Below, in pieces: positions 5,335 through 22,611 of a DNA stretch of 40,577 bases; the first letter of the stretch is position 1, and each line of letters begins with the position of its first letter. The position numbers were made by a program, and so were the translations under genes. Where the stretch lies: NCBI GenBank assembly GCA_034430355.1, contig DAOUFA010000080.1:1-40577 (forward strand), given 5' to 3'. This DNA comes from Dehalococcoidales bacterium (GTDB taxonomy: Bacteria > Chloroflexota > Dehalococcoidia > Dehalococcoidales > E44-bin46). The notes beneath the pieces were generated by a model. That model did not search any database. It had not been told where the DNA came from and saw only the letters and a list, made by a program, of their open reading frames with translations.

Positions 5335-5456
5335 AAATAATTACTATACGATTTTAGTCGAAGTCACACTAACTGTCAAAAGGGGGCTCGGGCATGGCTA
5401 CAGTTTTGGCTTACTGCCATTTTGCCTCCCGATTCGCTCTAAACTTGAAGAAGCGG

Positions 5457-7955: not shown

Positions 7956-7979
7956 ACGGAAATATCCCCAGGAGTGAAA

Positions 7980-7992
7980 TTGGCTCCCCGAG
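7980..7992. repeat. 13-nt exact copy of the tRNA-Asn 3' end (TTGGCTCCCCGAG)
   Basis: It is identical to 21078-21090 in direct orientation. It sits in the ychF/acs intergenic region and also forms the small hairpin GGCTC-CCC-GAGCC. Confidence 0.5.
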
Positions 7993-8128
7993 CCATTTAA
8001 TAGATAGAACTTCCAAGATGGTTTTTACGTTCTGTTAAGCTCGCCCTGGAGGAACTTCTGAAAAGCGATTGGGCACTTCCCTCGCAGGTACCCCATCACA
8101 CAATCAGGAAAGAGTGCCAACAGCAGGG

Positions 8129-10291
8129 TTAAGAGAGCATGACCCGGGCATCGACTACCACATACCCTTTATCTTGCTCTAGTGCCTTCACTGGATTGAG
8201 GTCCAGGTCCGCTATTTGTGGTAAGTCTGCCACCATTGCTGAGACCCTTAGCAAGAGTCCCTCAAGGGCCTTTATATCACAGGGCTTCGATCCCCGCCAG
8301 CCCTCAAGAAGTTGATAAGTCTTGACTGAGCGGACCATCTCATAAGCATCAACGTCAGTCAGCGGATGAATGCGGAAGGTGACGTCTTTAAATAACTCGG
8401 CCTGTGTCCCACCCATACCGAACATAATCAGTGGCACAAAAGAGGGGTCCTGAGTTACACCAACAATTACCTCGGTCCCCCCACGTATCATTTGTTGAAC
8501 AGTGACGCCTTGCATCTCTTTTTCTCTCCCGATAAGGGTCAGTCGCTTCTTGATTTGCCTAAATGCCTGTTCTACTTCTCTCTGCGAGCGAAGGTCAAGA
8601 ATTACGCCTCCAACTTCTGTTTTATGGGCTATTGTGTCTGAGAGCAGCTTCACAGCCACGGGGAAGCCGATTTCTTCAGCTGCCTGGACAGCCTCTTCGG
8701 TAGTCGCCACTGACTTCGACTGCACCAAGCGAATTCCATAGCAGTCAAGAAGCTCAGTGACAGAAATAGCATCTAGCCACAAGGGTCGAGCTGGGCTCCT
8801 CTCTAAAGCCCTGGCGACTACCTGCTCAGCCTTCTTTCTATCGGTGCTCACTATCTCTGGAATTATCCCCTTTGGTCTCCTTAGCCAGTCATTGTATTCG
8901 CAAGCCTTGGCGACGGCCGTGGCTGTAGCTTCAGGGAAAGCAAAAGAGGGAACGCAATACTCTTCTTCGGAGCCCAGTTGGATGGAGGCGCTGCGCGAGC
9001 CCATAAATGAAGCCACCAGGACCTTACCTCGTCGGCGAAACTCCGGAGCTACCTTCTGGATGGCACCAGCTACCAATTCCAGCTGTGTACGTATCGGCGG
9101 GATAAAAATGACAATCATAATGTCTATACAATCATCTTGTGCCACAAGTTCCAGTGCCTGGCTATACTGGTCGGCAGTAGCTTCAGCAGTCATGTCGATG
9201 GGGTTAGTAAGACTGGCACGAGGTTGCAGGAAATTCTTCAGCCCTGAATAGGTCTTCCCCGAAAGAGACGGCAATTCAAGGCCTCTAGCAGCACAGGCGT
9301 CAGCAGTTAAAATTCCTGGGCCACCACCATTGGTAAGTATAGCCACTCTTCTTCCCGAAGGTATGGGTTGATGGGACAGCAGGTTGGCTACGTCAAATAG
9401 CTCCTCCAACGTGTCTACCCGGATTATCCCAGTCCGCGTAAACAGTGCTTCGGAAGCCACCTCAGCAGTAGCTAGTGCTCCCGTATGAGATGCAGCCGCC
9501 CTGGAGCCCGCCAGAGTGCGTCCGCTTTTTACGGCTACAATTGGCTTGGTAGGCGTTATGCTCTGGGCTATGCGAGCAAACTTTCCGGGGTTGCCGAAAG
9601 ATTCAAGGTAAAGGAGGATAAGATCAGTAGCTGGGTCTTCCTCCCAGTATCGCAACAGGTCGTTGCTGGATACATCAGCCCTGTTTCCTATACTGACAAA
9701 ACTAGAGAGACCAATATTCAAATTCTTCGCATATTCTAGAATAGCAACTCCGAGGGCACCGCTCTGAGTACCCAGAGCAATGTTGCCGGTAGGAGGAAAA
9801 ACTGGGGAGAAAGTGGCATTCATATTGACCTCTGGGTCGGTATTGATGACCCCCATGCAGTTGGGGCCTATCAGGCGCATTCCATAGCGGCGAGCTATAC
9901 TAAGTATCCTTTCTTGCTTTTCTATCCCTTCAGCCCCACTTTCTCCAAAGCCGGCTGATATTACCACAACGCCTCGCACACCCTTCTGCCCGCACTGTTC
10001 CATCACCTGGTGGACTGTTTCTGCGGGGACGATAACCACCGCCAGGTCCACTTCTCCCGGAATATCTAAAACAGAGGGGTATGTCTTTACGGATGCCACT
10101 ACGTCAGCATTTGGGTTCACCGGATAGACAACGCCCTTAAAGTCCTGTTGCAATATGTTATGGAAAAGCTTATTACCGATGGTTCCCCGTCGTCGCGAAG
10201 CTCCGATAACAGCTATGGAACGGGGCTTGAGCAAAGCTCTCAACGAAGCTGTGGTGGCAATCTTATCCTGATCTCCAAACGTCTCCTTCAT
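8129..10291 (-). CDS. Acetate--CoA ligase (ADP-forming) / NDP-forming acyl-CoA synthetase, fused alpha-beta
   Basis: The product is 720 aa. It has an N-terminal CoA-binding domain (SIAVIGASRRRGTIG), a succinyl-CoA-ligase-like flavodoxin domain and a C-terminal ATP-grasp domain. Confidence 0.85.
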   Translation of the reverse strand: MKETFGDQDKIATTASLRALLKPRSIAVIGASRRRGTIGNKLFHNILQQDFKGVVYPVNPNADVVASVKTYPSVLDIPGEVDLAVVIVPAETVHQVMEQCGQKGVRGVVVISAGFGESGAEGIEKQERILSIARRYGMRLIGPNCMGVINTDPEVNMNATFSPVFPPTGNIALGTQSGALGVAILEYAKNLNIGLSSFVSIGNRADVSSNDLLRYWEEDPATDLILLYLESFGNPGKFARIAQSITPTKPIVAVKSGRTLAGSRAAASHTGALATAEVASEALFTRTGIIRVDTLEELFDVANLLSHQPIPSGRRVAILTNGGGPGILTADACAARGLELPSLSGKTYSGLKNFLQPRASLTNPIDMTAEATADQYSQALELVAQDDCIDIMIVIFIPPIRTQLELVAGAIQKVAPEFRRRGKVLVASFMGSRSASIQLGSEEEYCVPSFAFPEATATAVAKACEYNDWLRRPKGIIPEIVSTDRKKAEQVVARALERSPARPLWLDAISVTELLDCYGIRLVQSKSVATTEEAVQAAEEIGFPVAVKLLSDTIAHKTEVGGVILDLRSQREVEQAFRQIKKRLTLIGREKEMQGVTVQQMIRGGTEVIVGVTQDPSFVPLIMFGMGGTQAELFKDVTFRIHPLTDVDAYEMVRSVKTYQLLEGWRGSKPCDIKALEGLLLRVSAMVADLPQIADLDLNPVKALEQDKGYVVVDARVMLS

Positions 10292-10542
10292 GACCTCCTC
10301 CTGTAAGCCTAATTGACCCTGAAGGAATTATATGCCAAAGCAAGTTTTGTGTCCATTGTGCTACCAAACCACTGGGGAAGTAGGCAGCTTTCTCGATTCC
10401 TTAACTGGCACAATCTGGCGTTTTGTGTTGGTGAATTTTATCACTGTAATGGAAATCGCTACTGGTGCGGTGGCATGCCTAAAACCCATTCCTATAGAAA
10501 AAGATAGAACCTCTGAACGAGAAGTCCTACCTATTAAACGAC

Positions 10543-10552
10543 TTGGCTCCCC
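10543..10552. repeat. 10-nt copy of the tRNA-Asn 3' end (TTGGCTCCCC); candidate distal att site
   Basis: It is identical to 21078-21087 in direct orientation. It coincides with the point where composition turns AT-rich. Confidence 0.5.
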
Positions 10553-10879
10553 CTGGTTGACTTATTCCGCAACTATAAGCTTGAAATCCAGTTTACCTTA
10601 GTAGAGTTAAAACGATTGTTTGAAGTATTCAATTTGTCTCCAATAACCCATGCTTGACCTTCCCCCCAATGAATAATTCTGAAAAACCCCCAAACAGCAC
10701 GAGGCGTGCAGAAAGGTGGAAAGTTTAAAAATTGAGAACCAGAACCGAGGGACGTTACTATTCCTTTTGCGTCAGGTCGGTTTGGCATATGGATAGTTGG
10801 AAGTTTATTCATCAATAATAACTTGATAAGCCCACTGGCTTTATGATTTATAGGTCAAACCTGTATAATACTATACGCT

Positions 10880-11527
10880 ATGAGTCTATTGTGGATTATT
10901 ATCATAGGTTTAGGCGCAAGTATTATCGGCGGTCTTATTTCGGGTCGTCTCGTGATACGAAAGGTTACACACGATACAAAGCGCCTATACGCAAGGCAAA
11001 TTAAAGAAGACTTCGAGATAATGTCTATTCTTCTATTTATGTCAGCCAGAAGCTTCTTAGAATTAATCGGGTATCACATTAAAGATTTTGACGCAAATCA
11101 ACCTAAAATGATTGAAAAAGTGAATCAAACCATAGTAAATCAAGTTCGAAAGGAATACCAACGTGAGTATGAACGAAGATTATTAAAATATGATTTAAGT
11201 AAACTCATATCTCAAGTTGAAGAGCTCGTGAAAGACATTACGAACGAGACTACTGGCTTTAATAGCTTTTTTAGTAAGTATCCCTTACACGCATCTTATT
11301 TCGACGCACTTTATCAAGCGTCCTCTGCGGTAGAACTGATAATTTTTTGGCGAAATCAGATACCAGAGCAAATTAACGAAGAGCAAAAGCGGATTTGTAT
11401 ATCTAATGTAACCTCTTACCTGCTAGATGTTCTCGATTGTCTACTCAAAGCTAGCTCGGAGATAAAGTATTATTGTAAGGCGAAAGCGTGGACGTGGCGG
11501 CTTATCGTGCCGACTACTCGAACTTGA
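10880..11527 (+). CDS. Hypothetical membrane-anchored protein (215 aa)
   Basis: An N-terminal TM helix (LLWIIIIGLGASIIGGLISG) is followed by a helical soluble domain. I recognise no family. TATAAT lies at 10864-10869, only about 10 nt before the ATG. Confidence 0.55.
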   Translation: MSLLWIIIIGLGASIIGGLISGRLVIRKVTHDTKRLYARQIKEDFEIMSILLFMSARSFLELIGYHIKDFDANQPKMIEKVNQTIVNQVRKEYQREYERRLLKYDLSKLISQVEELVKDITNETTGFNSFFSKYPLHASYFDALYQASSAVELIIFWRNQIPEQINEEQKRICISNVTSYLLDVLDCLLKASSEIKYYCKAKAWTWRLIVPTTRT

Positions 11528-11658
11528 CCATCTAATTATCCGCATAAGACCGATAGATACGTCATCCCATCAAGCAAATACATTGCATATACTCTATTGA
11601 CCTGCCCCCCGAAAAGGAGTCCAGGTAAAATGTTAGCAATATTAGATGTATGATTTTG

Positions 11659-12183
11659 TTATTCAGATATTCCCAGCTGTTGCTTTAATTCTGGTTTCAT
11701 CTTTTTTAAATCCAGTTGCCCCCTTGTGTAGGCCTCCTTAAGTCGTGCTTCTATATCTTTCCAACCCATTCGGTCAAATTCACCATGTCTGCTGAGTAAA
11801 TGGGCAAAATAGACAACATTGTTTATTGACAGATTGGAAACATTGCGATGATAATGGTTCATATCACGATAGGCTGTTTTGGCAGGCTTTTTTGAGTGTG
11901 TGAAGCTAAGTTCATCAAGATAGTTTGCACTTAGCAGGGCATAATCAAAATCATATTTTATGTCCTTACGTAAAGAAACGAAGGCAGCGACAATATCGAG
12001 CAAATTAGACTTATCGTCAGAAATCTCCCACAAAGAGAGAGCATTGTTATCCGCTCTTAAATCCCTGATAATACACGAAGGCAACTCACCTTCTTTAAGC
12101 CACGAAGGAAATTGTGTTCTCTCCCAATTAATGTTGCTATATATTGCACGTAGAAAGTAAGGCATTTCATTAATATGTTTCAA
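11659..12183 (-). CDS. Hypothetical protein, third gene of the three-gene operon (174 aa from TTG 12183; 168 aa if ATG 12165)
   Basis: The ORF overlaps or abuts the stop of the upstream gene at 12170-12172. No motif was recognised. Confidence 0.6.
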   Translation of the reverse strand: MKHINEMPYFLRAIYSNINWERTQFPSWLKEGELPSCIIRDLRADNNALSLWEISDDKSNLLDIVAAFVSLRKDIKYDFDYALLSANYLDELSFTHSKKPAKTAYRDMNHYHRNVSNLSINNVVYFAHLLSRHGEFDRMGWKDIEARLKEAYTRGQLDLKKMKPELKQQLGISE

Positions 12184-12967
12184 GCCCCTTAATTGCGACT
12201 TTAATATTATTCCTCAAAATTGGAACAGTATCTGTTTCAAAAAGCATACGGAGTTGAGGTAAAGCCCTATTGTCATCTAAGAATGAAAGCCCACTAACCG
12301 CTCCGTCACGAATAATTGCAGATTCATTTTTAATTGAGTCTATGAGAAGCTCATAGCGTTCATATTTAGTATTTTGGTCTTCTATTCTGCCTAATGCTTT
12401 TAGTGTTTCGGATATTATGTCATCATCAAGGATTTGTTTCCTGATTAGGTTATTAATAATGCGGACAGCAGGTTTCCCGTTAGCTCGAATCAGTCCATCA
12501 AGAGCATTCGTGAACTCATATGCGATATCCGTATCAAATTCTTCGTTACTGTAAGCGTCAAAAATGCTGATGGCACTTTGTTCTATTTGGAGGTCACTAG
12601 CTGATATTTGAGGGGTATAGGTAGAAACTGTATCGAAAACTTCATGATAGGAATGCGTTTGTATACGACTTTGTATTGTATAGAATCTACCGGCAAGTAA
12701 CATAATTCGTTCACAGATTGATTCATCAGGTAAAAATTTTTGACCAAAACCAGAGGCGGAAAATACTGTCGCGCTCTCTGCGTCTCTATTGAACGAATAC
12801 AAATAATTTCCACGGATTTCACTCGGCAAAAATATACCACTAACTTGCGTTGCTATTTGGGGATTCTCTTGAAACAGAAAATAGCAGTACCCACAATGCT
12901 TTATTTGAGGCAAATTAGTTACTTGATATTCATAAAGAGTAGAAGCTTCAAGTTCAGTAGTGAACAT
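12170..12967 (-). CDS. Hypothetical protein with C-terminal HEAT-like repeats, second gene of the operon (265 aa)
   Basis: The ATG lies 1 nt after the upstream stop. The C-terminal third (ETLKALGRIEDQN...RDGAVSGLSFLDDNRALPQLRMLFETD) looks like HEAT/PBS-lyase repeats. The N-terminal two thirds are unrecognised. Confidence 0.6.
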   Translation of the reverse strand: MFTTELEASTLYEYQVTNLPQIKHCGYCYFLFQENPQIATQVSGIFLPSEIRGNYLYSFNRDAESATVFSASGFGQKFLPDESICERIMLLAGRFYTIQSRIQTHSYHEVFDTVSTYTPQISASDLQIEQSAISIFDAYSNEEFDTDIAYEFTNALDGLIRANGKPAVRIINNLIRKQILDDDIISETLKALGRIEDQNTKYERYELLIDSIKNESAIIRDGAVSGLSFLDDNRALPQLRMLFETDTVPILRNNIKVAIKGLETY

Positions 12968-12968
12968 A

Positions 12969-13730
12969 CTATTTATCTCCGTCAGTCGATATTTGGTCTC
13001 CGAGTTTACTTAACTCTTGAAGCAATAGAGTTAGTTTCTCTTTTGAGAATATTTTCTTGTTAGACTGATGGGTACTAATATCAAGTTCCAAACGACTGGC
13101 AAAATAACTTCTTTTTTCTTGAATTACTTCCGACTTCTCTCCAACAAACAATCCAAATCCCATAGCGCGTACTGCGCTCCATTTGGAAAGCCTGTTAATA
13201 ATAAGGCCTGGTTCAACAGTTGATTGTATTGGGCGGTTGATTTGATAAAAGAAATCAGTTGAATTTTCAATATCTATTGTTACATGATGTAAAAGAGTAG
13301 ATAATTGCTTGTAGGCTGATGCTTTATTGTCATTGACAATTAAGGAAACTGAACCTAGAGCTATCCTATTAGTTTCTGGTACAGCATCTGAAGATAACCA
13401 ATCATTCATCATCTTAAAAAACTGACCTTTGGTTTCGAATAAAGAACCAAGAGTAGGAAATGAGGCAGTTTTCTGTTGTTGTTCTTGTGATGGTGATAAG
13501 GTCCAGTTAATCCTTAAAGGGTCAGACATGTGAGTGAGTGACCCAAGAACGACGGTACCCTCCTCAATAATTATATTAGCTCTCGGTTGAGAATCAACCT
13601 TCTCTGGTTTTTCTCCAGTAAGAGTTTCCCAAAGAGGTATTACCGTTTCGATGGGTTTGGCTCTGAACAACGTAAGACGAAGCGATTCTACTTGCCAATC
13701 AATCACTTTTTTACCCTTTAAGGAATTCAA
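12969..13730 (-). CDS. Hypothetical protein, first gene of the operon (253 aa from TTG 13730; GTG 13706 is an alternative)
   Basis: This is a long ORF in AT-rich DNA, where stop codons are frequent. It is tightly coupled to the next gene. No motif was recognised. Confidence 0.6.
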   Translation of the reverse strand: MNSLKGKKVIDWQVESLRLTLFRAKPIETVIPLWETLTGEKPEKVDSQPRANIIIEEGTVVLGSLTHMSDPLRINWTLSPSQEQQQKTASFPTLGSLFETKGQFFKMMNDWLSSDAVPETNRIALGSVSLIVNDNKASAYKQLSTLLHHVTIDIENSTDFFYQINRPIQSTVEPGLIINRLSKWSAVRAMGFGLFVGEKSEVIQEKRSYFASRLELDISTHQSNKKIFSKEKLTLLLQELSKLGDQISTDGDK

Positions 13731-13776
13731 TTATACAGTCTAATGCTTAGTTTTTCTGGTGTCAACATGATTAACC

Positions 13777-13785
13777 ATTATACCA
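13777..13785 (-). promoter_or_regulatory. Extended -10 element (TGgTATAAT) for the three-gene operon
   Basis: The minus strand reads TGGTATAAT about 45 nt upstream of the first start codon. The -35 is weak. Confidence 0.4.
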
Positions 13786-13907
13786 CATAGGTTGTAATAC
13801 TCAGATTCGTATTAATTAGGGTGGCACAAATGGTATTAATCTACATTTGAATTTTATCACCTTTAGTTCAATATGACAAATATTCAAATTCCTTGCTATT
13901 GACGGTA

Positions 13908-13936
13908 TTGACAAGCTATTTAGTTCTTAGTATATG
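13908..13936 (+). promoter_or_regulatory. Putative promoter facing the noncoding region (TTGACA, 17 nt, TATATG)
   Basis: The -35 is consensus and the spacer is 17 nt. It diverges from the operon promoter, and no convincing ORF lies downstream. Confidence 0.4.
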
Positions 13937-14188
13937 TACGTCGTCAGCATTTATGGCACAACCTGATAATGAGCACTTTAACCGGTTGAATTACCCCTGT
14001 CAAGCTCCCTCACTTTGTGGTTATGCTCTCTCTTGGCTTGTAGTGTTCTTCGCTTTGCCTCCTTTCTCCTGTTGATTATACCCTGACCCTGCCAGACCTT
14101 CCTAATGTTCCTAACCTATTGTGTCCAGTCTCAGGGGTTCACTCCGTAGAGTAATTTCTTGACACCATAAAAAGTGGACATAAAACGC

Positions 14189-14217
14189 TTTGGCTTTTGC
14201 AGAGAATGTGCTATACT
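14189..14217 (+). promoter_or_regulatory. Putative promoter with extended -10 (TTGGCT ... TGcTATACT)
   Basis: TGCTATACT lies at 14209-14217 and a TTGGCT -35-like hexamer lies 16 nt upstream. It immediately precedes the GC-enriched structured segment. Confidence 0.4.
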
Positions 14218-14223
14218 AATAGT

Positions 14224-14593
14224 AGTGGGGCAGTGCCCCGTAGAACATTAATAATTGAATAGGGTAAATGCAGAGCTGTTCCGAAGCCTAAAGACTCCTC
14301 ATATCGTTCTCGAAAGAGAACCGTAAAGAGGACTCCTTCAGGTTCCGGCAGATGATATGCACCAAGGCGAAACAGAGCATCGACAAGATTGAGGGCGGGC
14401 AAGAGAAATCTCCCCAAATTCAGTCTGGCACGGCCTCTGGCAGTCAAAGTGAGCCTCACCTGAATTTAGGAGCTCTGTCACCTGACAAAGACTATTAGGC
14501 TTTGTGGTGTTCTGCATTTATTATCAGTAGTAGCTTACTGATAAACAAAAAGGAGTATTTGAAGCCAATGGGCTTTGGGTTCTCCTTTTTTTA
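14224..14593 (+). ncRNA. Candidate structured noncoding RNA (or structured replication-origin region), class unknown
   Basis: The segment runs from a promoter to a terminator with no credible ORF, and its G+C is visibly higher than the surrounding island. Hand-found helices are GGGGC-agt-GCCCC (14227-14239), GTTCTC-GAAA-GAGAAC (14306-14321, extendable by CCTC/GAGG), AAATTCAG/CTGAATTT (14416-14423 with 14460-14467) and TTATCAGTA-n6-TACTGATAA (14521-14544). Confidence 0.35.
14550..14593 (+). terminator. Rho-independent terminator
   Basis: AAGGAG...AAGCC-aatg-GGCTT...CTCCTT forms a hairpin followed by T7. On the opposite strand it is also followed by TTTTTGTTT, so it may act in both directions. 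Confidence 0.55.
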
Positions 14594-14623
14594 TTTTATA
14601 TACGGTTCTTAAGAAGATTTGTG

Positions 14624-14800
14624 ATGCAATCGAAAAGCAAGAAAACTGTAATCGAACAAACCTACCGAGAGTCCGGTAGCGAAACTGAAGAGCTACGGGA
14701 TAATGATAGGCTGTCTAAGTTTTTCGAAATTTTAATGCAAATTGACCAGAGGCAAAAACGGGATGGGAAGAATAACCGAAGTTCAAATAGTCCCTATTAA
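14624..14800 (+). CDS. Possible 58-aa ORF (MQSKSKKTVIEQTYRESGSETEELRDNDRLSKFFEILMQIDQRQKRDGKNNRSSNSPY)
   Basis: It is below the ORF-track cut-off and begins just after the terminator. It overlaps the SpoVG-like start in another frame. The RBS is weak. Confidence 0.25.
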   Translation: MQSKSKKTVIEQTYRESGSETEELRDNDRLSKFFEILMQIDQRQKRDGKNNRSSNSPY

Positions 14801-15059
14801 GCCAAAGGATGGACTCATAGCTTTCGCGAGCTTTGTTTTGGACGACAGCCTATATTTAGGCTCTATTGGTATCGCTACAAGGCTTCAAGGGGGCTACCGG
14901 CTAATCTATCCTACCAAGCGAACTGGTAATAAGGATATAAACGTCTTCCATCCCATTAAAAAGGCATTCGCTGAAGCAGTGGAAGACGAAGTAGTAAAAC
15001 GACTTGAAGATGTAATGAATAAAGGCAATGATAGACACAATAGTATTAACCCTCAATGA
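14742..15059 (+). CDS. SpoVG-family nucleic-acid-binding protein (likely start ATG 14763)
   Basis: ITEVQIVPIKPKDGLIAFASFVLDDSLYLGSIGI...GGYRLIYPTKRT...NVFHPIKKAFAEAVEDEV follows the SpoVG pattern (ITDVRIRK..G.mKA.aSIt.D..fvvh.I.v....G.f.amPsrk......d.aHPI....r..i..av). Confidence 0.65.
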   Translation: MTRGKNGMGRITEVQIVPIKPKDGLIAFASFVLDDSLYLGSIGIATRLQGGYRLIYPTKRTGNKDINVFHPIKKAFAEAVEDEVVKRLEDVMNKGNDRHNSINPQ

Positions 15060-16161
15060 GAATAGCTTCACAATCGTTGAACATGATAAGTTCAGCCCTT
15101 CCACAGAGGGACTATATTCCTCTTCCTATTACCGGCTGGGCGGGCGTGCGAATCTAATCTGCAAGCAGAACCCGACTTCTAGGGAACTGGCAGCCGGCAT
15201 CTATAAGCCCAGGCTTTCGGCTACCAAGCGACTCAATAGACATCGTAACTTCGAGATTACCCTAAAGGTTGAGTTTTCAATCCCCAAGCTCCTATTCGGC
15301 AATAACTTTGACGAGCTAGAAGACGCCGATTTCCCCCTGGTCGTCTCACGGCTAAGAGAAAAGCTCAGGGACATGGGCGTTCTCGTGACAGAGCCGATTT
15401 TATCGAGCGCCCCTATATCCAGTATCCATTTCTCAAAGAACGTGCCCCTTGTTGACTACACGACGCCCTACACCTATTTGGAGAGACTGTCTAGGATTAA
15501 CCTTAACCAACGGCTAGACCTGAATCAAACGGACTTCCGGAACGAAGGGCACAGCCTGAAATTTCGGGCTAATTCTTTCGAGGTAGCTTTCTACGATAAG
15601 ATGAAGGACTTGAGCAAGGCGAAGATTAGCGAAAAACGTGCTGAAGAAACTGAGAACGTTATCCAGATGAAGCTGTTTGAAAAACTGGAAATCAGCAAAC
15701 CCTTCGAAGTCCTTAGAATGGAAGTAAGGCTAAACAAAAGGCAAAAGCTGAAGCAGGTCTTGAAGAATATCGGCATTGAGACAGAGCCTACGTTCCAATT
15801 CCTATTCAGAAAAGACATAGCTCAAAAGGTTCTTCTTCACTATATGGGTGTGATAGAGAAGGGCTATCCTTTGATTCTCTCATACGATTGCAAAGACGCC
15901 AAAGACTTCCTATCTGATTTCATAATCCATAACCCAAAAGCAGGGCTTAAAAAGGCAATACAGATGCTAGGTTTACGAGTCCTTATAGACCAAGTGGGCG
16001 TGCGAGAATTCAGGGAAATCACGAGAAAATACGGCAAGGCGAACTGGTATCGGCTAAACAAAGAGATGCAGTCTCTTAACTATCCCCAAAGTAAGGATGT
16101 GTTTATGACCTTACGGCAATGCCTAGAAGAATTCAAGCCCTTAAAGCTTATTGACTTTTAA
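15028..16161 (+). CDS. Replication initiation protein, rolling-circle type (filamentous-phage gene II / Phage_CRI-like)
   Basis: The N-terminus MIDTIVLTLNE... resembles the MIDMLVLRLPF start of Ff gene II proteins. The size is about 377 aa. The gene overlaps the SpoVG-like gene by 32 nt. Assignment is by eye only. Confidence 0.5.
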   Translation: MIDTIVLTLNENSFTIVEHDKFSPSTEGLYSSSYYRLGGRANLICKQNPTSRELAAGIYKPRLSATKRLNRHRNFEITLKVEFSIPKLLFGNNFDELEDADFPLVVSRLREKLRDMGVLVTEPILSSAPISSIHFSKNVPLVDYTTPYTYLERLSRINLNQRLDLNQTDFRNEGHSLKFRANSFEVAFYDKMKDLSKAKISEKRAEETENVIQMKLFEKLEISKPFEVLRMEVRLNKRQKLKQVLKNIGIETEPTFQFLFRKDIAQKVLLHYMGVIEKGYPLILSYDCKDAKDFLSDFIIHNPKAGLKKAIQMLGLRVLIDQVGVREFREITRKYGKANWYRLNKEMQSLNYPQSKDVFMTLRQCLEEFKPLKLIDF

Positions 16162-16179
16162 GAAAAAAGGTGTATAATA

Positions 16180-16395
16180 ATGTTAATCAATGTAAAAGGT
16201 AGATTTATGGAAGAGAAATATTACACACCTCAAGAAATTGCCTCTATTCTGAAAGTAGCTTATATGACGGTTTATCGCTGGATTCGAGCCGGTAAACTGG
16301 AAGCTTATCAGGTGCAGAAACAATACAGGATAAGAGAAGCCGACTTCAACAAGTTCATGGAAGCTAACAAAAAGGTAACAAGTAAAGGAAGCTAA
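16180..16395 (+). CDS. Excisionase-family / MerR-superfamily HTH DNA-binding protein (likely start ATG 16207)
   Basis: YYTPQEIASILKVAYMTVYRWIRAGKLEAYQVQKQYRIREADFNKFME is the classic helix-turn-helix_17/excisionase signature. Confidence 0.7.
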   Translation: MLINVKGRFMEEKYYTPQEIASILKVAYMTVYRWIRAGKLEAYQVQKQYRIREADFNKFMEANKKVTSKGS

Positions 16396-16396
16396 A

Positions 16397-18199
16397 ATGA
16401 ATAATAGCGATTCTATTCTCATGGAGAACGTAAAGAGGGGAATCGAGAAAGGAATAATTAGCCTTTCCGATAACGAGTCAAGAATAACCTATAAGTGCAG
16501 TCGTGAGTACTCCGTAAGCTTCAAGAATCCAGAAGAGAAGGTAAGAGCTTCCTATTTCGTTGAACTGGTTGAAGACTACCGCTATCCTCAAGAAAGAATC
16601 GGGCTTGAGGTTACCATTCCAAGAAGGACACCGGAAGACAGGGCTGATATTGTTATATTTGAAGATGACACACTGAAAAAGCCGTATCTTGTAGTGGAAT
16701 GCAAGAAAGATGGGATTTCAGATGCAGAATTCAAGCAGGCAATAGAGCAGGTATTCGGTAATGCTAACAGCCTAAGAGCAAAATTTGCCTCTGTAATTGC
16801 CGGAACAACCAGGACTGTCTTCGATGTGGCTGGTTTTACCCCAGGCGAAAGAGAAAAGAACGTAATCTCGGATATTCCTGTCAAATATGGTCAAACCCCT
16901 AAATACAGGTTCATAAAGGGCGAAAAGGATAAAGAGCTTAAGGTAGTCTTGAAGGAAGACCTTATCAGAACGCTTCAGAAGGCTCACGATACCGTATGGC
17001 AAGGGGGTAAACTAGCACCTACCACTGCTTTTGATGAAATCTCAAAGCTTTTGTTCTGCAAGCTTCAAGATGAAACGGAAAGCACCATTACCTCAACGGG
17101 AAAGCCCTACAAGTTCCAGGTGGGAACATACGAGACTGCAAACGAAGTATTTGACCGGATAAATAAGATTTACCAAGAAGCAAAACAAAAGGATGCCGAG
17201 GTCTTTAAGGAAGATATCAGGTTGGAACCGAAAATTGTTTACGCCGTTGTGGAACACTTGCAAAGTATCAACTTCAATGAGACTGACCTGGATGCAAAAG
17301 GGGTTGCCTTCGAGAAGTTCATGGAAGATTTCTTTAAGGGGAAAATGGGGCAGTTCTTTACGCCGAGAGAGCTGATTAGATTCTGTGTAAAGATGATGAA
17401 TCCTCAAACGAACCAACTGATATTAGACCCTGCTTGTGGCTCTGGTGGTTTCTTGCTTAATGCGATGGATTTAGTACGAGAGCAAGCCAAGAAAGAGTAT
17501 GGCGATGGCACTATTTCAGCTTATAGAATGTGGTATGACTTTGCCAGAGAAAACTTGTACGGCATAGATATTAACGACCAGATTGCTAGGGTATGCAAGA
17601 TGAACATGATTCTCCACGATGATGGTCATTCCAACGTTATTAGCGTTGACAGTCTAGTAGATGTAAACGAGATTAACCGAATTCACCCAAAGTTCAAAGA
17701 GAATGCTTTCGATTTAGTCCTGACTAACCCGCCCTTCGGAGCAACAGCAAAAGAGTCAGAAAAGCCTTATCTTAAGAATTACAATTTAGGCAAAGATAGG
17801 AAGACGCAGAAGACGGAGATACTATTTATTGAGCAATGCCTCAAATTCCTAAAGACAGGAACGGGCAAGCTAGCTATCGTCTTACCTGACGGTATCTTGA
17901 CCAATAGCTCTTTGCAATACGTGAGAGACTTCATAATGGAACGAACTCAAATTCTAGCTATTGTCTCTTTACCTCAATTTGCCTTTACCCATTTCGGAGC
18001 TGGTGTTAAAAGCTCCCTCGTATTCTTGCGAAAGAAAGACCTCAATGAAAGACCAGACAATTACCCTATCTTCATGGCTATCGCTGAGCACATTGGCTAT
18101 GACGCAACTGGTAGAAAAGAGCCTGTTAATGATTTAGATACGATTCATACCGAGTATCAAACATTCTTGGTAAATCAAAAGGACTATAAGGGCTGTTAG
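16397..18199 (+). CDS. N6-adenine DNA methyltransferase (gamma class, HsdM-like) with N-terminal PD-(D/E)xK HSDR_N-type domain
   Basis: Motif I is ILDPACGSGGFLL and motif IV is LVLTNPPFGA. The N-terminal 150 aa contain DRADIVIF...KPYLVVECKK, a D...ExK nuclease-like signature. Confidence 0.85.
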   Translation: MNNSDSILMENVKRGIEKGIISLSDNESRITYKCSREYSVSFKNPEEKVRASYFVELVEDYRYPQERIGLEVTIPRRTPEDRADIVIFEDDTLKKPYLVVECKKDGISDAEFKQAIEQVFGNANSLRAKFASVIAGTTRTVFDVAGFTPGEREKNVISDIPVKYGQTPKYRFIKGEKDKELKVVLKEDLIRTLQKAHDTVWQGGKLAPTTAFDEISKLLFCKLQDETESTITSTGKPYKFQVGTYETANEVFDRINKIYQEAKQKDAEVFKEDIRLEPKIVYAVVEHLQSINFNETDLDAKGVAFEKFMEDFFKGKMGQFFTPRELIRFCVKMMNPQTNQLILDPACGSGGFLLNAMDLVREQAKKEYGDGTISAYRMWYDFARENLYGIDINDQIARVCKMNMILHDDGHSNVISVDSLVDVNEINRIHPKFKENAFDLVLTNPPFGATAKESEKPYLKNYNLGKDRKTQKTEILFIEQCLKFLKTGTGKLAIVLPDGILTNSSLQYVRDFIMERTQILAIVSLPQFAFTHFGAGVKSSLVFLRKKDLNERPDNYPIFMAIAEHIGYDATGRKEPVNDLDTIHTEYQTFLVNQKDYKGC

Positions 18200-18208
18200 G
18201 CTGCTAGA

Positions 18209-19615
18209 ATGAAGTGCTTTAAGGTATTCTATGACGATATTGAAGGCAGACTGGATTGCTTCTTTTATCAGCCTGAATTAGTTCAACTAGAGCATAAAGT
18301 AAAAAGGATTACTGATAGAAAGCTGGGGGACTACATACTAGGCATTTCGGGCGGAGCTACTCCAAACAAGAATGAAAGCGAGAAGTACTATTCTGAATCC
18401 GGCATTCCGTTTTTGAGGGTGCAGAATGTTACCAGTGCAGGCTTGAGTCTCGAAAACTGTATATTCATCAACCAAGAAACGCACAACAACATGCTTAAGA
18501 GAAGCCAGGTAGAAGAAGGCAACCTGATTACTAAGATTACTGGCGTGGGAAGAATGGCTGTCTCTGCGGTTGCTCCACCAAGCTTTGAGGGGAACATTAA
18601 CCAGCACTTGGTTGTCATAAAGACGCAAAGCACTGAGGTAAGCAAAGTACTGGCAACATTCTTAAATTCTGATATTGGCGAAAGGTTAGCTTTTAGACGC
18701 TCAACCGGTGGCACAAGACCTGCGTTGAATTACGAGGCTTTAAAGACAATTCCTGTTGTATATAGACCTGAAATTGTTGAAATCATGGAGTCAGCTTATG
18801 AGCGCAAAAAACAAAAAGACGAGGAAGCCAAGAAGCTATTAGATTCCTTAAATGGCTTTGTTCTTGAACGTTTGGGGATAAGCTTGCCCGAAATTAATGA
18901 CAAGAGCTGTTTTGTTGTATGGAGTGATGATATAAAGGGGCGGAAGATTAATCCGCAAGCTTATACAGCAAAGCCCAAAGCAATCAGAAGTGCAATTGAA
19001 GGCTCTACATATCCAATTAAAAGACTCTCTGATATTGTAACTCAAAACATATCCGGAGAGTGGGGTGAAGACCCAGTTTTGGTAAAGAAGACAGATGGCC
19101 ATGTCTTATGCAGAGTCCTAAGGAATACTAATTTTGTTAATCAGTATAACCTAAATTTTGAGAACGTAGCGGAACGGCTTATTAGGAAAGACAAATACCA
19201 AAAGATTAGGTTAAAAAAGGGGGATATCTTAATCGAGAAATCAGGTGGTAGTCCAATACAGCCTGTTGGTAGAGTAGCATTGGTCGAGAGTACAAGTGAA
19301 GGATATGCTTTTAGCAATTTTGTTCAATTGATACGGATTAGTGAAGAGTGCATACCGCAATACTTATTCATCTTTTTGAAAGCAGTTTACGCCCTTAATT
19401 ATATGGAGTATTTACAGAATCAAACGACAGGAATAAAGAACCTGATAATGAGTGAGTATCTGTCAATTCCCATACCGATTCCTCCTCTAGAAGTTCAGAA
19501 AGTGATTGCAGACGAAGTTGAGTCAAGAATGCAGAAAGCAGAACAGCTACAAAAGGAAGCCGAACAAGAGGTCGAGAAAGCCAAAGCTGAGGTCGAAAAG
19601 ATAATACTTGGCTAG
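18209..19615 (+). CDS. Restriction-modification specificity subunit (HsdS-like, two target-recognition domains)
   Basis: There are two Methylase_S-like TRDs (…GIPFLRVQNV…, …ILIEKSGGSPIQPVGRVALV…) and a C-terminal coiled coil. The gene starts 10 nt after the methyltransferase gene. Confidence 0.85.
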   Translation: MKCFKVFYDDIEGRLDCFFYQPELVQLEHKVKRITDRKLGDYILGISGGATPNKNESEKYYSESGIPFLRVQNVTSAGLSLENCIFINQETHNNMLKRSQVEEGNLITKITGVGRMAVSAVAPPSFEGNINQHLVVIKTQSTEVSKVLATFLNSDIGERLAFRRSTGGTRPALNYEALKTIPVVYRPEIVEIMESAYERKKQKDEEAKKLLDSLNGFVLERLGISLPEINDKSCFVVWSDDIKGRKINPQAYTAKPKAIRSAIEGSTYPIKRLSDIVTQNISGEWGEDPVLVKKTDGHVLCRVLRNTNFVNQYNLNFENVAERLIRKDKYQKIRLKKGDILIEKSGGSPIQPVGRVALVESTSEGYAFSNFVQLIRISEECIPQYLFIFLKAVYALNYMEYLQNQTTGIKNLIMSEYLSIPIPIPPLEVQKVIADEVESRMQKAEQLQKEAEQEVEKAKAEVEKIILG

Positions 19616-19629
19616 GAGTTGAAGGTATT

Positions 19630-21093
19630 ATGACTAAAGCCGTGATTCTAGCACGTGTATCAACTGTAAGACAGGAAAAGGAAGGGTTGTCGCTGAAAGA
19701 CATTCAGCTTCCAGCTTTAAGAGAGTACGCCCAAAACAAAGAGTTAGCGGTTGAAAGAGAGTTCGTCTTTACTGAGAGTGCTGATTACAAGATAAGAAGA
19801 AAATTCGATGAAATGGTCGAGTATGTCAAAGTCAACAATGACATTAAGACCATTATCGCTTACCGAGTGGATAGGATAACCAGGAACTTCAGGGATGCAG
19901 TTCTGATTGACGAGCTACGTCTTAACCATGACAAGGAAATACACTTTGTTTATGACCGGCTGGTAATTAACAAAAACACAATGGGGAGGGACATTCAGGA
20001 CTGGGACTTAAAGGTATTCCTAGCCAAGCAATACATCAACCGGCTCAAAGAGGATGCCACTAATTCAGCCTCATACATGCTAAGGAATGGTTTACTGCCT
20101 GGCAAAGCGCCTTACGGCTACAAGAATGTGGCTCTAGAAGACAAAAAGAAGTGGGTCGTTACCGAGCCATTTGAAGCTAGAGTCGTTCAGAAAATGTATG
20201 AATGGTATGGCTCCGGTTGCTTTTCTATGCTGGAAGTAAGAAAGAAGCTGAAAGAAGACTTTGACATTGATTTTTCTAAAGGTTTCGTTGACTTCATTCT
20301 CAAGAATCCATTTTATTGTGGGACGATTCAGTATGACGGACAAAAGTATCCCCATAATTACGAGTGTATTATATCTAGAGAGCTATTCGACAAAGTTCAA
20401 CAGGTGAAAGCCGGCTATAACAAGAAGCACTTCAAATTCGCAGGTTTACCTTACCTCTATCGAGGGTTAATCAGGTGTGCTGATTGCGGTTGTATGATTA
20501 CACCGGAAAAGAAAAAAGGCAAGTATGTTTATTACCATTGCACTGAATATAACGGCAAGCATAATGCTAAGTGGCTAAGGGAAGAAGAACTAACCAAGCA
20601 GTTTGCCCAGCTATACAAATCATTACAGATTCCTGAAGATGTAATCGAAGAAATTACGGCTTCATTAAGGAAGTCCCATAAAGACAAAACACAGTTTCAT
20701 CGGACTATGCTTGAAGGCTATCAAAAGGAATACCAGAAATATGAGGCTCGCATTGAAGCCATGTATGAAGACAAACTGGACGGTAGTATTACTCAGAGCG
20801 ACTATAACAAAAAGCGTGAAGAATACCGGACAAAACAGAAGGAAATATCAGATAAGATTAGCAGGCTAGGCTTTGCTGATGAAGAGTATTATTTGACTTC
20901 AGAATATATATTACAGCTTGCTAATAGAGCCTATGAACTATTCATGAGTTCTGAAGCGGAAGAAAAACGGCAACTTTTAAAACTCACACTTCAGAACTTA
21001 AAATTAGAGGGCAAAAAGGTTGAATTTGAACTCGTAAAGCCCTTCGATAAGGTCTTCGCTTGCTCAAGTAGTCAAAGTTGGCTCCCCGAGTAG
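19630..21093 (+). CDS. Large serine recombinase (integrase)
   Basis: The resolvase-type catalytic N-terminus is AVILARVSTVRQEKEG...YRVDRITRN. A recombinase domain, a zinc ribbon (CADCGCMITPEKKKGKYVYYHC) and a coiled coil follow. The last 15 nt overlap tRNA-Asn. Confidence 0.9.
   Translation: MTKAVILARVSTVRQEKEGLSLKDIQLPALREYAQNKELAVEREFVFTESADYKIRRKFDEMVEYVKVNNDIKTIIAYRVDRITRNFRDAVLIDELRLNHDKEIHFVYDRLVINKNTMGRDIQDWDLKVFLAKQYINRLKEDATNSASYMLRNGLLPGKAPYGYKNVALEDKKKWVVTEPFEARVVQKMYEWYGSGCFSMLEVRKKLKEDFDIDFSKGFVDFILKNPFYCGTIQYDGQKYPHNYECIISRELFDKVQQVKAGYNKKHFKFAGLPYLYRGLIRCADCGCMITPEKKKGKYVYYHCTEYNGKHNAKWLREEELTKQFAQLYKSLQIPEDVIEEITASLRKSHKDKTQFHRTMLEGYQKEYQKYEARIEAMYEDKLDGSITQSDYNKKREEYRTKQKEISDKISRLGFADEEYYLTSEYILQLANRAYELFMSSEAEEKRQLLKLTLQNLKLEGKKVEFELVKPFDKVFACSSSQSWLPE
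21078..21090. repeat. att-like core at the tRNA-Asn 3' end (TTGGCTCCCCGAG)
   Basis: This is the reference copy of the repeats at 7980-7992 (13/13) and 10543-10552 (10/10). Confidence 0.5.
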
Positions 21094-21153
21094 GACTCGA
21101 ACCTACAACCTAGCGGTTAACAGCCGCCCACTCTACCATTGAGCTATCGGGGA
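21079..21153 (-). tRNA. tRNA-Asn (anticodon GTT), CCA encoded
   Basis: In the reverse complement the acceptor is TCCCCGA/TCGGGGA, the anticodon stem GGCGG/CCGCT, the loop CTGTTAA and the T-loop TTCGAGT. The 3' end is GCCA. Confidence 0.85.
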
Positions 21154-21334
21154 AGGCATTGCTCCAAGGTTTGCAGCACAGCATTAGCTTATTACATCCC
21201 CTACTTCTTGTCAAAGTAGTGGAGCTGCAGACAAGACAACTCGATGGATTGTTAAATGCCTTGGAAGAGGCCACACTAATGCTCAATAGATGCCATAGTA
21301 ACGGCACGAGCAAGGTTTCAACTCTTTGGGGTCA

Positions 21335-21363
21335 TTGACAAAGCCCTGGAAGAGGGCTAAACT
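21335..21363 (+). promoter_or_regulatory. Putative promoter of the DAHP synthase gene (TTGACA, 17 nt, TAAACT) with a palindrome in the spacer
   Basis: The -35 is consensus. The spacer contains AGCCCT-ggaag-AGGGCT, a possible operator. Confidence 0.4.
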
Positions 21364-21435
21364 CAAATCCTATCTGGTGAAATGACTTTGGCAGGTGAGA
21401 AATCTCAAAATACAAGGGGGTTAATGTAAGACACT

Positions 21436-22452
21436 ATGATAGTTGAAATGCGAGCCGACACCACTCAAGAGGAGATAGACGGCGTAGTGCAGAGGGCGAA
21501 GTCACTGGGACTCGGCGTCCAGTTGAACCTAGGGACTGATATAACGGTGGTGGCTATATTGGGAAGCAATACGGGACAGTTATCCACAGACCTTTTTGCC
21601 GTACTCCCTGGAGTTGAGAGGGTAAACCGAATTATGAAGCCTTACAAGCTCGCCTCCAGGGAATTTAAGGCCGAGGACAGCCTGGTTTCTATTAATGGAA
21701 TTGAGGTTGGGGGTAATCGTATCGTGGTCATGGCCGGACCCTGCGCCGTGGAGAGTGAAAAACAACTTGTTCAGGCGGCCAAGGTAGTAAAAGAGGCCGG
21801 GGCTTGTGTGTTACGTGGTGGTGCCTACAAACCACGTACCTCCCCCTTCAGCTTTCAGGGTCTGGAGGAAACCGGACTGAAATTACTAGCCCAGGTCAGG
21901 GAGCAATTCGGCATACCCGTAATCACCGAAGTGGTAGACCCTCATCATGTTAGTTTGGTAGCTAACTACGCCAATATCCTTCAAGTCGGTTCCCGGAATA
22001 TGCAAAACTTCGCCTTGCTCACCAGTATTGGGAAAAGCCAGTGTCCCGTGGTCCTGAAACGCGGGTTTTCGTGCACTGTTACCGAGTGGCTTACCGCCGC
22101 CGACTATCTGCTGGCAGAGGGGAATAGCCAGGTTATTCTGTGCGAAAGGGGAATCAGAACGTTTGAGGATAGTACTCGCTTTTCTCTGGATATTTGTTCA
22201 ATAGCGGTAATTAAGCGATTCAGCCACCTGCCGGTAATTGTTGACCCCAGCCATGCTGCTGGTCACTATTCACTGGTACCGTCAATAGCCAAGGCGGCGA
22301 TAGCTGCTGGCGCCGACGGGCTTCTTATTGAAGTCCATCCTAACCCGACGGAAGCTCTGGTGGACGGGCTCCAGTCCCTGACACCGTCAGACTTCGCCAG
22401 GTTGATGGTGGAACTCAGACCAATTGCGAAAGCGGTGGGCAGACATATCTGA
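21436..22452 (+). CDS. 3-deoxy-7-phosphoheptulonate (DAHP) synthase, type I-beta with N-terminal ferredoxin-like regulatory domain
   Basis: The core reads VVMAGPCAVESEKQ...LRGGAYKPRTSPFSFQGL...VDPSHA. An N-terminal extension of about 70 aa resembles that of the Thermotoga-type enzyme. Confidence 0.85.
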   Translation: MIVEMRADTTQEEIDGVVQRAKSLGLGVQLNLGTDITVVAILGSNTGQLSTDLFAVLPGVERVNRIMKPYKLASREFKAEDSLVSINGIEVGGNRIVVMAGPCAVESEKQLVQAAKVVKEAGACVLRGGAYKPRTSPFSFQGLEETGLKLLAQVREQFGIPVITEVVDPHHVSLVANYANILQVGSRNMQNFALLTSIGKSQCPVVLKRGFSCTVTEWLTAADYLLAEGNSQVILCERGIRTFEDSTRFSLDICSIAVIKRFSHLPVIVDPSHAAGHYSLVPSIAKAAIAAGADGLLIEVHPNPTEALVDGLQSLTPSDFARLMVELRPIAKAVGRHI

Positions 22453-22611
22453 ATATGAGTTTGTCCTGCGGGTAAAATTAACCCAACTGAACAATAGACA
22501 TCTTTGGTGGCTGAAAAAGTAGTGACTTTTGATGGGTCAGTATCGGGATAGTATTATTAAATTAACGCTTGGGAAAGGACAAATAGCCGGACTGGTTCGA
22601 TATGTTTTAAG

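Follow-up and report, generated by a model that had tools for sequence, protein, structure and literature searches.

The closest described counterparts of the integrative element analyzed below are the genomic islands inserted at ssrA in Dehalococcoides (ssrA-GIs), which carry a large serine recombinase (LSR) gene beside the 3' end of a small RNA gene and are bounded by direct repeats of that end (McMurdie et al. 2011, PMC3146451). Here we analyze a 40,577-nucleotide contig (the window, that is, the whole stretch of DNA under study) of a 1.22-Mb, 166-contig Dehalococcoidales genome, in which positions 10544-21087 (hereafter element B) form an insertion at a tRNA-Asn gene. Element B shares with the ssrA-GIs the host phylum, an LSR at the 3' end of an RNA gene and the flanking repeats. 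In both, the recombinase open reading frame (ORF) overlaps the attachment (att) site and its stop codon differs between the integrated and circular forms, and in both there are tandem arrays that include islands devoid of an integration module. McMurdie et al. also speculated that full function of dsiB might be confined to the circle (PMC3146451). In contrast, the ssrA-GIs target ssrA with a 20-bp repeat, whereas element B lies at tRNA-Asn with a repeat of 10 nt; they use a pair of recombinases (DsiB and DsiA) instead of a single LSR; and they carry RecF-like, ParB, Mom and tRNA-Gly-like module genes, none of which is present in element B. Conversely, the module of element B, composed of SpoVG-like, Rep-like and helix-turn-helix (HTH) genes, is absent from the ssrA-GIs, for which no replication genes were reported (PMC3146451). 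Moreover, the overlapping C-terminus of the ssrA-GI recombinase was described as divergent, whereas the corresponding tail in the family of element B is conserved across phyla. Element B thus lies outside the ssrA-GI family by its target, module genes and lack of a recombinase pair, while sharing with it the att overlap and the tandem islands.

Three other groups of described systems resemble element B in part. Integrative and mobilizable elements (IMEs) are small and site-specific, lack their own transfer apparatus and have very short repeats, and some of them carry Rep_trans-type initiators or relaxases and restriction-modification (R-M) or toxin-antitoxin cargo (Guedon et al. 2017, PMC5704250). 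Their arrays arise by integration beside a decayed cis-mobilizable element (CIME), an accretion pattern that matches the arrangement of element B next to a 2.55-kb insertion described below (cassette A). However, the IMEs with serine recombinases come from Bacillota so far and, instead of rebuilding a tRNA 3' end, in most cases interrupt protein genes, none has been described with attP inside the recombinase gene (PMC5704250), and no relaxase or oriT is recognizable in element B. A second group, the "suicidal" tyrosine integrases of the SSV type that archaeal viruses and plasmids encode, have their site within their own gene, which is split on integration and restored on the circle, as proposed for element B, and according to a review such self-disruption is exclusively archaeal (PMC8371274). 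These enzymes are tyrosine recombinases from which essential parts are split off, whereas the bacterial LSR of element B loses only a C-terminal tail lying beyond the canonical fold. Finally, in the integration-dependent immunity of mycobacteriophage BPs and its relatives, attP lies near the 3' end of a coding sequence and the free and integrated forms encode different C-termini, which in BPs acts as a switch (PMC3694055, PMC4557955); there, the split gene encodes a repressor whose lost tail serves as a degradation tag, and the integrase belongs to the tyrosine recombinases, whereas in element B the split gene is that of the LSR itself.

Our analysis led us to consider, with a probability of roughly 80%, that 10544-21087 is an integrated small plasmid-like integrative element, with an LSR whose attP lies in its own gene and with a Rep-like module, standing in tandem with the older cassette A (Table 1). 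The stretch is compositionally the most deviant of its length in the whole assembly. The GC content of 10553-21077 is 0.403, against 0.488 genome-wide; among 10.5-kb segments across the genome (mean 0.484, standard deviation 0.019) the minimum is this same 0.403 and corresponds essentially to element B, and its tetranucleotide distance of 0.349 (background 0.131 +/- 0.046) is equalled by none of 213 background segments. A first-pass annotation of the window, which had proposed an element of about 10.5 kb within an AT-rich drop from about 10.55 to 21.08 kb, is therefore borne out as to composition and as to the extent of element B, with edges now placed at 10544 and 21087, but the whole insertion is composite and measures 13.1 kb. 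The right edge that it had set at the 3' end of tRNA-Asn(GTT) coincides with the ARAGORN and Rfam calls, the gene that it had read as a large serine recombinase next to this tRNA has the expected domains, and the 10-mer TTGGCTCCCC is directly repeated at 10543 and 21078 as it had described, with a further copy at 7980 that it did not mention.

The tRNA-Asn gene lies on the minus strand, so that its 3' end faces the element, and it is identical (100% over 75 nt) to the tRNA of an insertion-free genome of the same genus (G002). Five copies of TTGGCTCCCC exist on both strands of the 1.22-Mb genome, three of them in direct orientation within the window (7980, 10543 and 21078), and the 12-mer TGGCTCCCCGAG has only two copies in the genome, at 7981 and 21079. 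In G002, the gene order holA, ychF, tRNA-Asn, DAHP synthase is that of the window, the flanking genes are 95-96% identical at the amino acid level, and 25 nt separate the ychF stop codon from the 3' end of tRNA-Asn, constituting an empty site. This spacer aligns with window positions 7956-7980 and then enters TGGCTCCCCGAG at 7981-7992, which means that all of 7993-21078 (13.1 kb) is inserted relative to G002. ychF is also next to tRNA-Asn in three further genomes (G003, G005 and G006). The first-pass annotation had anticipated an empty site in which the tRNA is followed directly by the sequence left of 10543; an empty site exists, but in it the tRNA adjoins ychF, and the older insertion 7981-10543 stands in tandem with element B. 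It should be noted that DNA-level comparison with relatives was uninformative beyond the synthetase gene of cassette A, the genomes being too divergent, and that protein-level synteny was used instead. An Rfam scan of 7000-22000 returned the tRNA only. In G003, a BLAST match at C11:2149-2194 (L016) covers only the 5' 46 nt of tRNA-Asn (96% identity) and lies near a second tRNA-Asn, 82% identical and beside ychF; an earlier recombination event may have left this match behind.

Table 1. Coordinates of features of the tandem insertion at tRNA-Asn and its borders in the window.
Feature	Position	Strand	Evidence or remark
Distal tRNA-Asn 3'-end repeat TGGCTCCCCGAG	7981-7992	+	Outer junction of the 13.1-kb insertion and left junction of cassette A
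Cassette A, 2.55 kb	7993-10543		Absent between ychF and tRNA-Asn in G002
ADP-forming acetyl-CoA synthetase family gene	8129-10291	-	Pfam ATP-grasp_5, Succ_CoA_lig, CoA_binding; NCBIfam acetate/hydroxyacid--CoA ligase models
Left att core of element B, TTGGCTCCCC	10543-10552	+	Shared crossover region GCTCCCC
Detached 3' end of the recombinase gene, 37 codons and stop	10544-10657	+	In frame with 19630-21087 only after circularization
Variable cargo block, 3.5 kb, four genes without assigned function	10658-14154		Absent from L035
Cargo ORF	10880-11527	+	
Cargo ORF	11659-12183	-	
Cargo ORF	12170-12967	-	Weak HEAT_2 match
Cargo ORF	12969-13730	-	
Conserved, mostly non-coding backbone upstream of the SpoVG-like gene	14155-14741	+	71% nucleotide identity to L035 9128-9733
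SpoVG-like gene, core module	14742-15059	+	Pfam SpoVG 4.8e-8
377-aa core protein, probably an initiator or relaxase of the rolling-circle type and a distant relative of Rep_trans / Phage_CRI	15028-16161	+	
HTH_17 / excisionase-family DNA-binding protein, core module	16180-16395	+	Pfam HTH_17 1.5e-16; TIGR01764 "excise" 57.8 bits, above cut-off
Cargo: type I-like methyltransferase (HSDR_N_2 N-terminal domain) and specificity subunit	16397-19615	+	Pfam N6_Mtase, HSDR_N_2, Methylase_S
Large serine recombinase, integrated tail-less form, 487 aa	19630-21093	+	Pfam Resolvase, Recombinase, Zn_ribbon_recom; PHROG 95 integrase 4e-58
Right att core of element B, TTGGCTCCCC	21078-21087	+	Overlaps tRNA CCA end, discriminator base and acceptor stem
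tRNA-Asn(GTT), integration target, intact	21079-21153	-	ARAGORN; Rfam 69.7 bits

Element B belongs to a family of at least 160 loci, which we sampled as 80 loci from species-representative genomes and 80 metagenome loci. The genome loci come from Patescibacteria, Dependentiae/Babeliales, Omnitrophota, Dehalococcoidia (Chloroflexota) and Alphaproteobacteria, while records labelled Gammaproteobacteria are probably mislabelled bins. The common gene order is SpoVG-like gene, 377-amino acid (aa) protein, HTH_17 protein, variable cargo and LSR, and in the 80 genome loci we found the SpoVG-like gene in 61 (directly upstream of the 377-aa gene), the HTH gene in 47 and the LSR in 68. A tRNA called by ARAGORN has its 3' end overlapped by the LSR stop codon in half of these loci (40/80), the targets being tRNA-Asn (22), Arg (5), Asp (5), Gln (3), His (2), Glu (2) and Pro (1). 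Relatives have repeats of 9-16 nt that are anchored at the tRNA CCA end and recur 5-15 kb upstream, and their junctions have GCTCCCC in common. Their cargo often consists of methyltransferases or R-M genes, with homologues of the window methyltransferase in 21/80 loci. Searches of the accessible literature yielded no account of this family, which is not proof that none exists.

A circular form was found for one lineage of the family. Two metagenome contigs from different assemblies, L148 (7,698 nt) and L150 (7,702 nt), represent one 7,575-bp molecule: their sequences are circular permutations of each other with 99.99% identity, and the ends of each contig overlap exactly, over 123 and 127 nt, respectively. 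This molecule encodes the LSR and its tail as a single 540-aa ORF, together with SpoVG, a 390-aa homologue of the 377-aa protein, the HTH protein and an MvaI/BcnI-type R-M pair, and carries neither a tRNA nor virion genes. A further locus, L151, belongs to the same lineage (88% nucleotide identity) and is integrated at tRNA-Asn. The attP, attR and attL junctions of L148 and L151 fit recombination of attP with attB at the shared core GCTCCCC. The circle and its integrated counterpart indicate that both states occur in the family. Another contig, L140 (8,076 nt), was rejected as a circle, its end overlap being only 91% identical.

The recombinase of element B has a Pfam Resolvase domain at residues 4-119, with an RVST motif whose Ser11 is invariant in family alignments; its orthologue on L148 aligns to the C-terminal domain of A118 integrase over residues 186-473, and an AlphaFold2 (AF2) model of the LSR shows long helices at 340-418. 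In the integrated form the frame ends in ...SQSWLPE and a stop, its last five codons lying within the tRNA. After the left repeat, the LSR frame (TGG CTC CCC ...) stays open for 34 further codons, to 10657. The corresponding peptide (consensus L-P-L-V/K-D-x-F-x-N-x-x-I/L-E-F...) recurs in more than 40 relatives, where it is likewise encoded at the left end and in the frame of the att core. In element B this tail is still open, with 88% amino acid identity to that of L035, an independent element in a Dehalococcoidia metagenome-assembled genome, the core proteins of which are 72-88% identical to those of element B. Over 28 codons of 36 unique tail sequences, there are no in-frame stops (0/36), versus 35/36 sequences with stops in each other frame, and nucleotide identity by codon position is 0.59/0.74/0.50. 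Among the 120 closest LSR homologues, six carry the tail (512-527 aa) and one more is marginal, while most end in residues translated from the tRNA complement (WLPRVDSN...). Tail-bearing LSRs are encoded on ENA/Logan contigs of, for example, 8,487 and 9,569 nt. In the alignment with A118 integrase, about 15 residues separate the end of the canonical fold from the att core, so that no known domain is missing from the 487-aa integrated LSR and the tail constitutes an addition to it. The tail has a predicted local distance difference test score (pLDDT) of about 35-57 in an AF2 model of the full-length tailed integrase, too low for a claim on its fold or docking.

Several further observations concern the recombinases. 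At least 10 of the 80 genome loci have a second recombinase just upstream, and in tandem arrays (L121 167-1714, L069 5751-7328, L104 5943-7604, L039 4-438, L067 423-1391 and others) the upstream LSR abuts the tail of the next element, which may complete the upstream, older recombinase. At L038, L057, L049 and other loci, the LSR C-terminus reads through tRNA-like sequence (WLPR-DSN...) in the absence of an ARAGORN call, and these may be intron-containing or unusual tRNA genes. The genome under study also harbors a second, distant LSR (contig C65, about 4046-5566; L023/L024) with 27-30% identity and a 530-codon open frame, which is not beside a tRNA on its 12.4-kb contig.

The SpoVG, Rep-like, HTH and recombinase backbone that the first-pass annotation had recognized is present and conserved in relatives. 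Its assignment of a rolling-circle Rep finds no Pfam match but agrees with fold, language-model features (Phage_CRI) and collinear motifs; its Xis-like HTH does have an excisionase-family domain (TIGR01764), the Xis or recombination directionality factor (RDF) role being putative; and the excising circle that it had suggested has a counterpart in the related element on L148/L150, whereas none was seen for this copy in assembled contigs. Its statement that capsid, tail and conjugation genes are lacking agrees with Pfam, PHROGs, NCBIfam and PADLOC, none of which detected virion or conjugation genes.

The 377-aa protein has more than 1,800 homologues in 1,097 clusters at 50% identity. In two structural searches with its AF2 model (pLDDT 77), the best two matches were the RepD-type initiators 4cij and 4cwc: Foldseek gave a probability of 0.93 but a TM score of only 0.24-0.31, and VIA gave Z scores of 7.5 (4cij) and 7.1 (4cwc), ranks 1-2 among 48,161 chains, followed by TBP at 5.1. 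The nearest named clusters of the ESM Atlas carry PF05144 (Phage_CRI, gpII) on 25-31% of their members (score 0.97, 225/256 features shared). RLDL, FYDK and LRMEVRL, its invariant motifs, have collinear counterparts in pT181 RepC (NC_001393), namely RLDL, RIYNK and WRVEIEL. The motif spacing differs from that of Rep_trans and Phage_CRI initiators, and the 377-aa protein has an additional helical C-terminal domain of about 100 aa. Within F-Y-D-K, Tyr189 is invariant, and its collinear counterpart is the tyrosine of RIYNK, the catalytic Tyr191 of RepC. The structural model, the language-model clusters and the motifs suggest that this protein is probably a nicking initiator or relaxase. It may act in replication, in mobilization or in both, given that both functions are ascribed to MobT relatives (PMC5704250).

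The alternative that survives best sees in the 377-aa protein not a replication initiator but a transfer protein, either a MobT-like relaxase or some other DNA-binding protein, and in the circle a transient, non-replicating intermediate. Rep_trans relatives of the MobT type are relaxases in Tn916/ICEBs1-type elements (PMC5704250), and the 377-aa protein fails all sequence-based Rep models. We nevertheless regard this alternative as unlikely, as the circle was abundant enough to be assembled in two metagenomes, Pfam and PHROGs detected no coupling protein or other transfer gene in the element, and proteins of the MobT/Rep_trans type from Tn916 and ICEBs1 are themselves reported to do both jobs (PMC5704250).

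It is less probable still that element B, although it belongs to the family, has become fixed and immobile, an island that neither excises nor replicates. No joint or circle was seen for this copy in assembled contigs, its integrated recombinase lacks the conserved tail, and no RDF was identified. On the other hand, the core ORFs are all intact, both att cores are exact, the detached tail is open and 88% identical to that of L035, and the composition has not been ameliorated. In addition, in run X3 (a salt-marsh sample) contig depth is about 0.5-3 over element B (10619-20958) versus about 5-9 over the flanks and cassette A, a weak hint that may reflect cells without element B, given that contig depths cannot rank regions and that no bridging contig is listed.

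The boundary between cassette A and element B rests on three observations. First, the homology of L035 to the window starts exactly at 10544 (TGGCTCCCCC...), and the sequence left of this position is unrelated. Second, the shift in composition occurs at 10.55 kb, and 7993-10542 is host-like (GC 0.503). The third observation concerns symmetry. Serine-integrase att sites have dyad-symmetric half-sites around a central crossover. Candidate ends were therefore joined at the repeat and their symmetry was scored at a fixed centre, between GGCT and CCCC, against a null of 200,000 random genome flanks. Joining the right and left ends of element B (AGTCAA...TTGACT) gave 12/22 symmetric positions (P 0.006), with the dyad centre inside the repeat, and joining those of cassette A (CTATTAAA...TTTAATAG and more) gave 16/22 (P 1e-5) at the same centre. 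The mixed pairs scored 4/22 (right end of B with left end of A, as for a single 13-kb unit) and 3/22 (right end of A with left end of B, as in the genome), with no P value for either. Taken together, the L035 edge, the composition and the dyads argue that the insertion is a tandem array of cassette A and element B.

The same evidence makes it improbable that 7981-21087 is one 13.1-kb element in which the synthetase is cargo and the repeat at 10543 is fortuitous or internal. In favor of such a unit, the longest repeat (12-13 nt) is the outermost one, which matches the empty-site junction of G002, and composite arrays are able to move as one (PMC5704250). However, neither the start of L035 homology nor that of the conserved recombinase tail, both at 10544, nor a composition change at 10.55 rather than 7.98 kb would be expected of it, and its dyad of 4/22 compares poorly with 16/22 and 12/22 for the separate units. 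The least probable explanation is a prophage, such as a filamentous inovirus-like virus with a gpII-like Rep: the Phage_CRI (gpII) members of the nearest ESM Atlas clusters, the sizes of 7.6-10.5 kb and the inoviruses reported with serine recombinases and in hosts of the Candidate Phyla Radiation (CPR) (PMC6813254) would fit, but Pfam and PHROGs detected no pI/Zot ATPase, coat or other virion family in the window and L148 (very divergent versions could escape), an IMG/VR scan gave one weak partial match only, and the non-core region is variable cargo, mostly R-M genes, so that there is no conserved morphogenesis module.

As to cassette A itself, it contains no recombinase gene and a single gene, encoding the ADP-forming acetyl-CoA synthetase, and it has the appearance of a CIME-type tandem insertion that predates element B. 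Element B adjoins the tRNA and must thus have arrived later. The synthetase gene was not found in G002. Its close homologues, among them sequences with 95-96% identity, are all from Chloroflexota/Dehalococcoidia, as are the close homologues of the element, and both sets help to place the host. Short C-terminal fragments of a synthetase of this type (53-60% identity) are present at unrelated loci of two same-genus genomes, G003 (C1:139881-140144, L033) and G001 (C1:504023-504130, L032), the latter with an internal stop. This suggests that the genus lost its native gene by decay and that cassette A brought such a gene back into this genome.

Some results weigh against the interpretation of element B as a plasmid-like integrative element in tandem with cassette A. 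The attP dyad of element B is only moderate, and that of the circle L148 is weakly symmetric by eye. The circular contig could in principle derive from tandem copies. Neither the junctions of element B nor a site devoid of it were seen in Logan contigs (four runs, 7000-22500), a search of assembled contigs only that is neutral on excision. For the 377-aa protein, Z scores of 7-7.5 lie in the range that the tool rates as common, and the catalytic region of the model (residues 144-223) is of low confidence. Together with 20 family members it had no Pfam match even at E 10, nor did it match PHROGs, NCBIfam, PADLOC or a PDB profile search; hhalign against pT181 RepC gave a probability of 0.2, and a PF02486 search of the genome found nothing. 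Finally, no origin was identified, and a repeat search of 13700-15100 gave only short repeats and hairpins.

The remaining genes of element B comprise cargo and a small conserved core. In L035, the counterpart of window position 10641 directly abuts that of 14155. The genes of 10658-14154 have no homologues in the 160 related loci and, apart from the weak HEAT_2 match, no Pfam, PHROG or PADLOC assignment; this block, missing from L035 and all other loci, is therefore cargo. The conserved stretch that follows it (14155-14741) is a candidate control or origin region. The HTH protein also resembles MAD1; its presence in the core with or without R-M genes makes a role in the element's own control or excision plausible. 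PADLOC classified the methyltransferase and specificity genes as MTase_I (5e-140) and Specificity_I (1e-52). There is no HsdR gene in element B, and the pair thus falls short of a full type I R-M system (HsdM, HsdS and HsdR). The HTH, methyltransferase and specificity genes (16180-19615) also recall MAD1, MAD2 and MAD5 of the MADS defense system, all below NCBIfam cut-offs, and no other mad genes are present beside them. Elsewhere in the window, four minus-strand tRNA genes (Val-TAC, Arg-GCG, Leu-CAG and Val-CAC) are clustered at 1481-1813.

Based on these data, we propose the following scenario. The LSR would recombine the 3' end of tRNA-Asn with an attP located in the LSR gene itself, a reaction shown for the family and presumed for this copy, with the crossover falling within the shared GCTCCCC. 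The tRNA remains intact, the incoming DNA bringing with it an identical copy of the tRNA 3' end. Upon integration, a 487-aa LSR with all canonical domains would remain beside the tRNA, and the last 34 or so conserved codons (10544-10657) would come to lie at the opposite end of element B, whereas excision would yield a 10.5-kb circle on which both parts are rejoined and encode about 521 aa. This circle may be maintained or mobilized by the module of SpoVG-like, 377-aa Rep_trans-like and HTH proteins, putatively through rolling-circle-type nicking, with the methyltransferase-specificity pair and the 3.5-kb four-gene block as cargo. Element B would have inserted beside the older, recombinase-less cassette A, which had used the same tRNA site, and A and B thus form a 13.1-kb tandem (accretion) array.

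The directionality of serine integrases is normally set by separate RDF proteins. As the leading interpretation of the tail, we infer that it may exert a state-dependent control of directionality or stability. More tentatively, a tail present only on the integrase of the circular form might be a built-in state sensor, at the core of a widespread integrative-plasmid family that moves R-M, defense and metabolic cargo. For example, integration may be driven or allowed by the tailed enzyme, or this form may be unstable, and the tail-less chromosomal form may favor excision or be kept silent.

The general kind of element is already known, namely an integrative element that targets a tRNA and encodes a serine recombinase as well as a protein of the rolling-circle type. 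To this, the window adds a clean empty site, an exact left edge and a Chloroflexota host, together with a tandem metabolic cassette that has its own att dyad and a lineage found both as a circle and integrated. For a family that spans more than 1,000 protein clusters, it also defines the att sites exactly, in a form open to testing, along with the minimal set of genes; the hosts of this family (Patescibacteria, Dependentiae, Omnitrophota and Dehalococcoidia) have few genetic tools or known vectors. With cassette A, a streamlined genome has received a central-metabolism gene, that of acetyl-CoA synthetase, through site-specific insertion. Furthermore, a bacterial serine integrase gene that is cut by its own reaction, with its catalytic domains intact, contrasts with the statement that self-disruption is exclusive to archaea (PMC8371274). 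Should the tail indeed sense the state of the element, it would be the bacterial serine-recombinase counterpart of the archaeal self-splitting integrases and of integration-dependent phage switches, and the integrase of the upstream element in tandem arrays would borrow the tail of the next one. With directionality normally dependent on separate RDFs, such a cis-encoded switch would be new biology, potentially useful for genome engineering, and the family that uses it would carry cargo among ultra-small bacteria (CPR, Dependentiae) and other uncultured bacteria.

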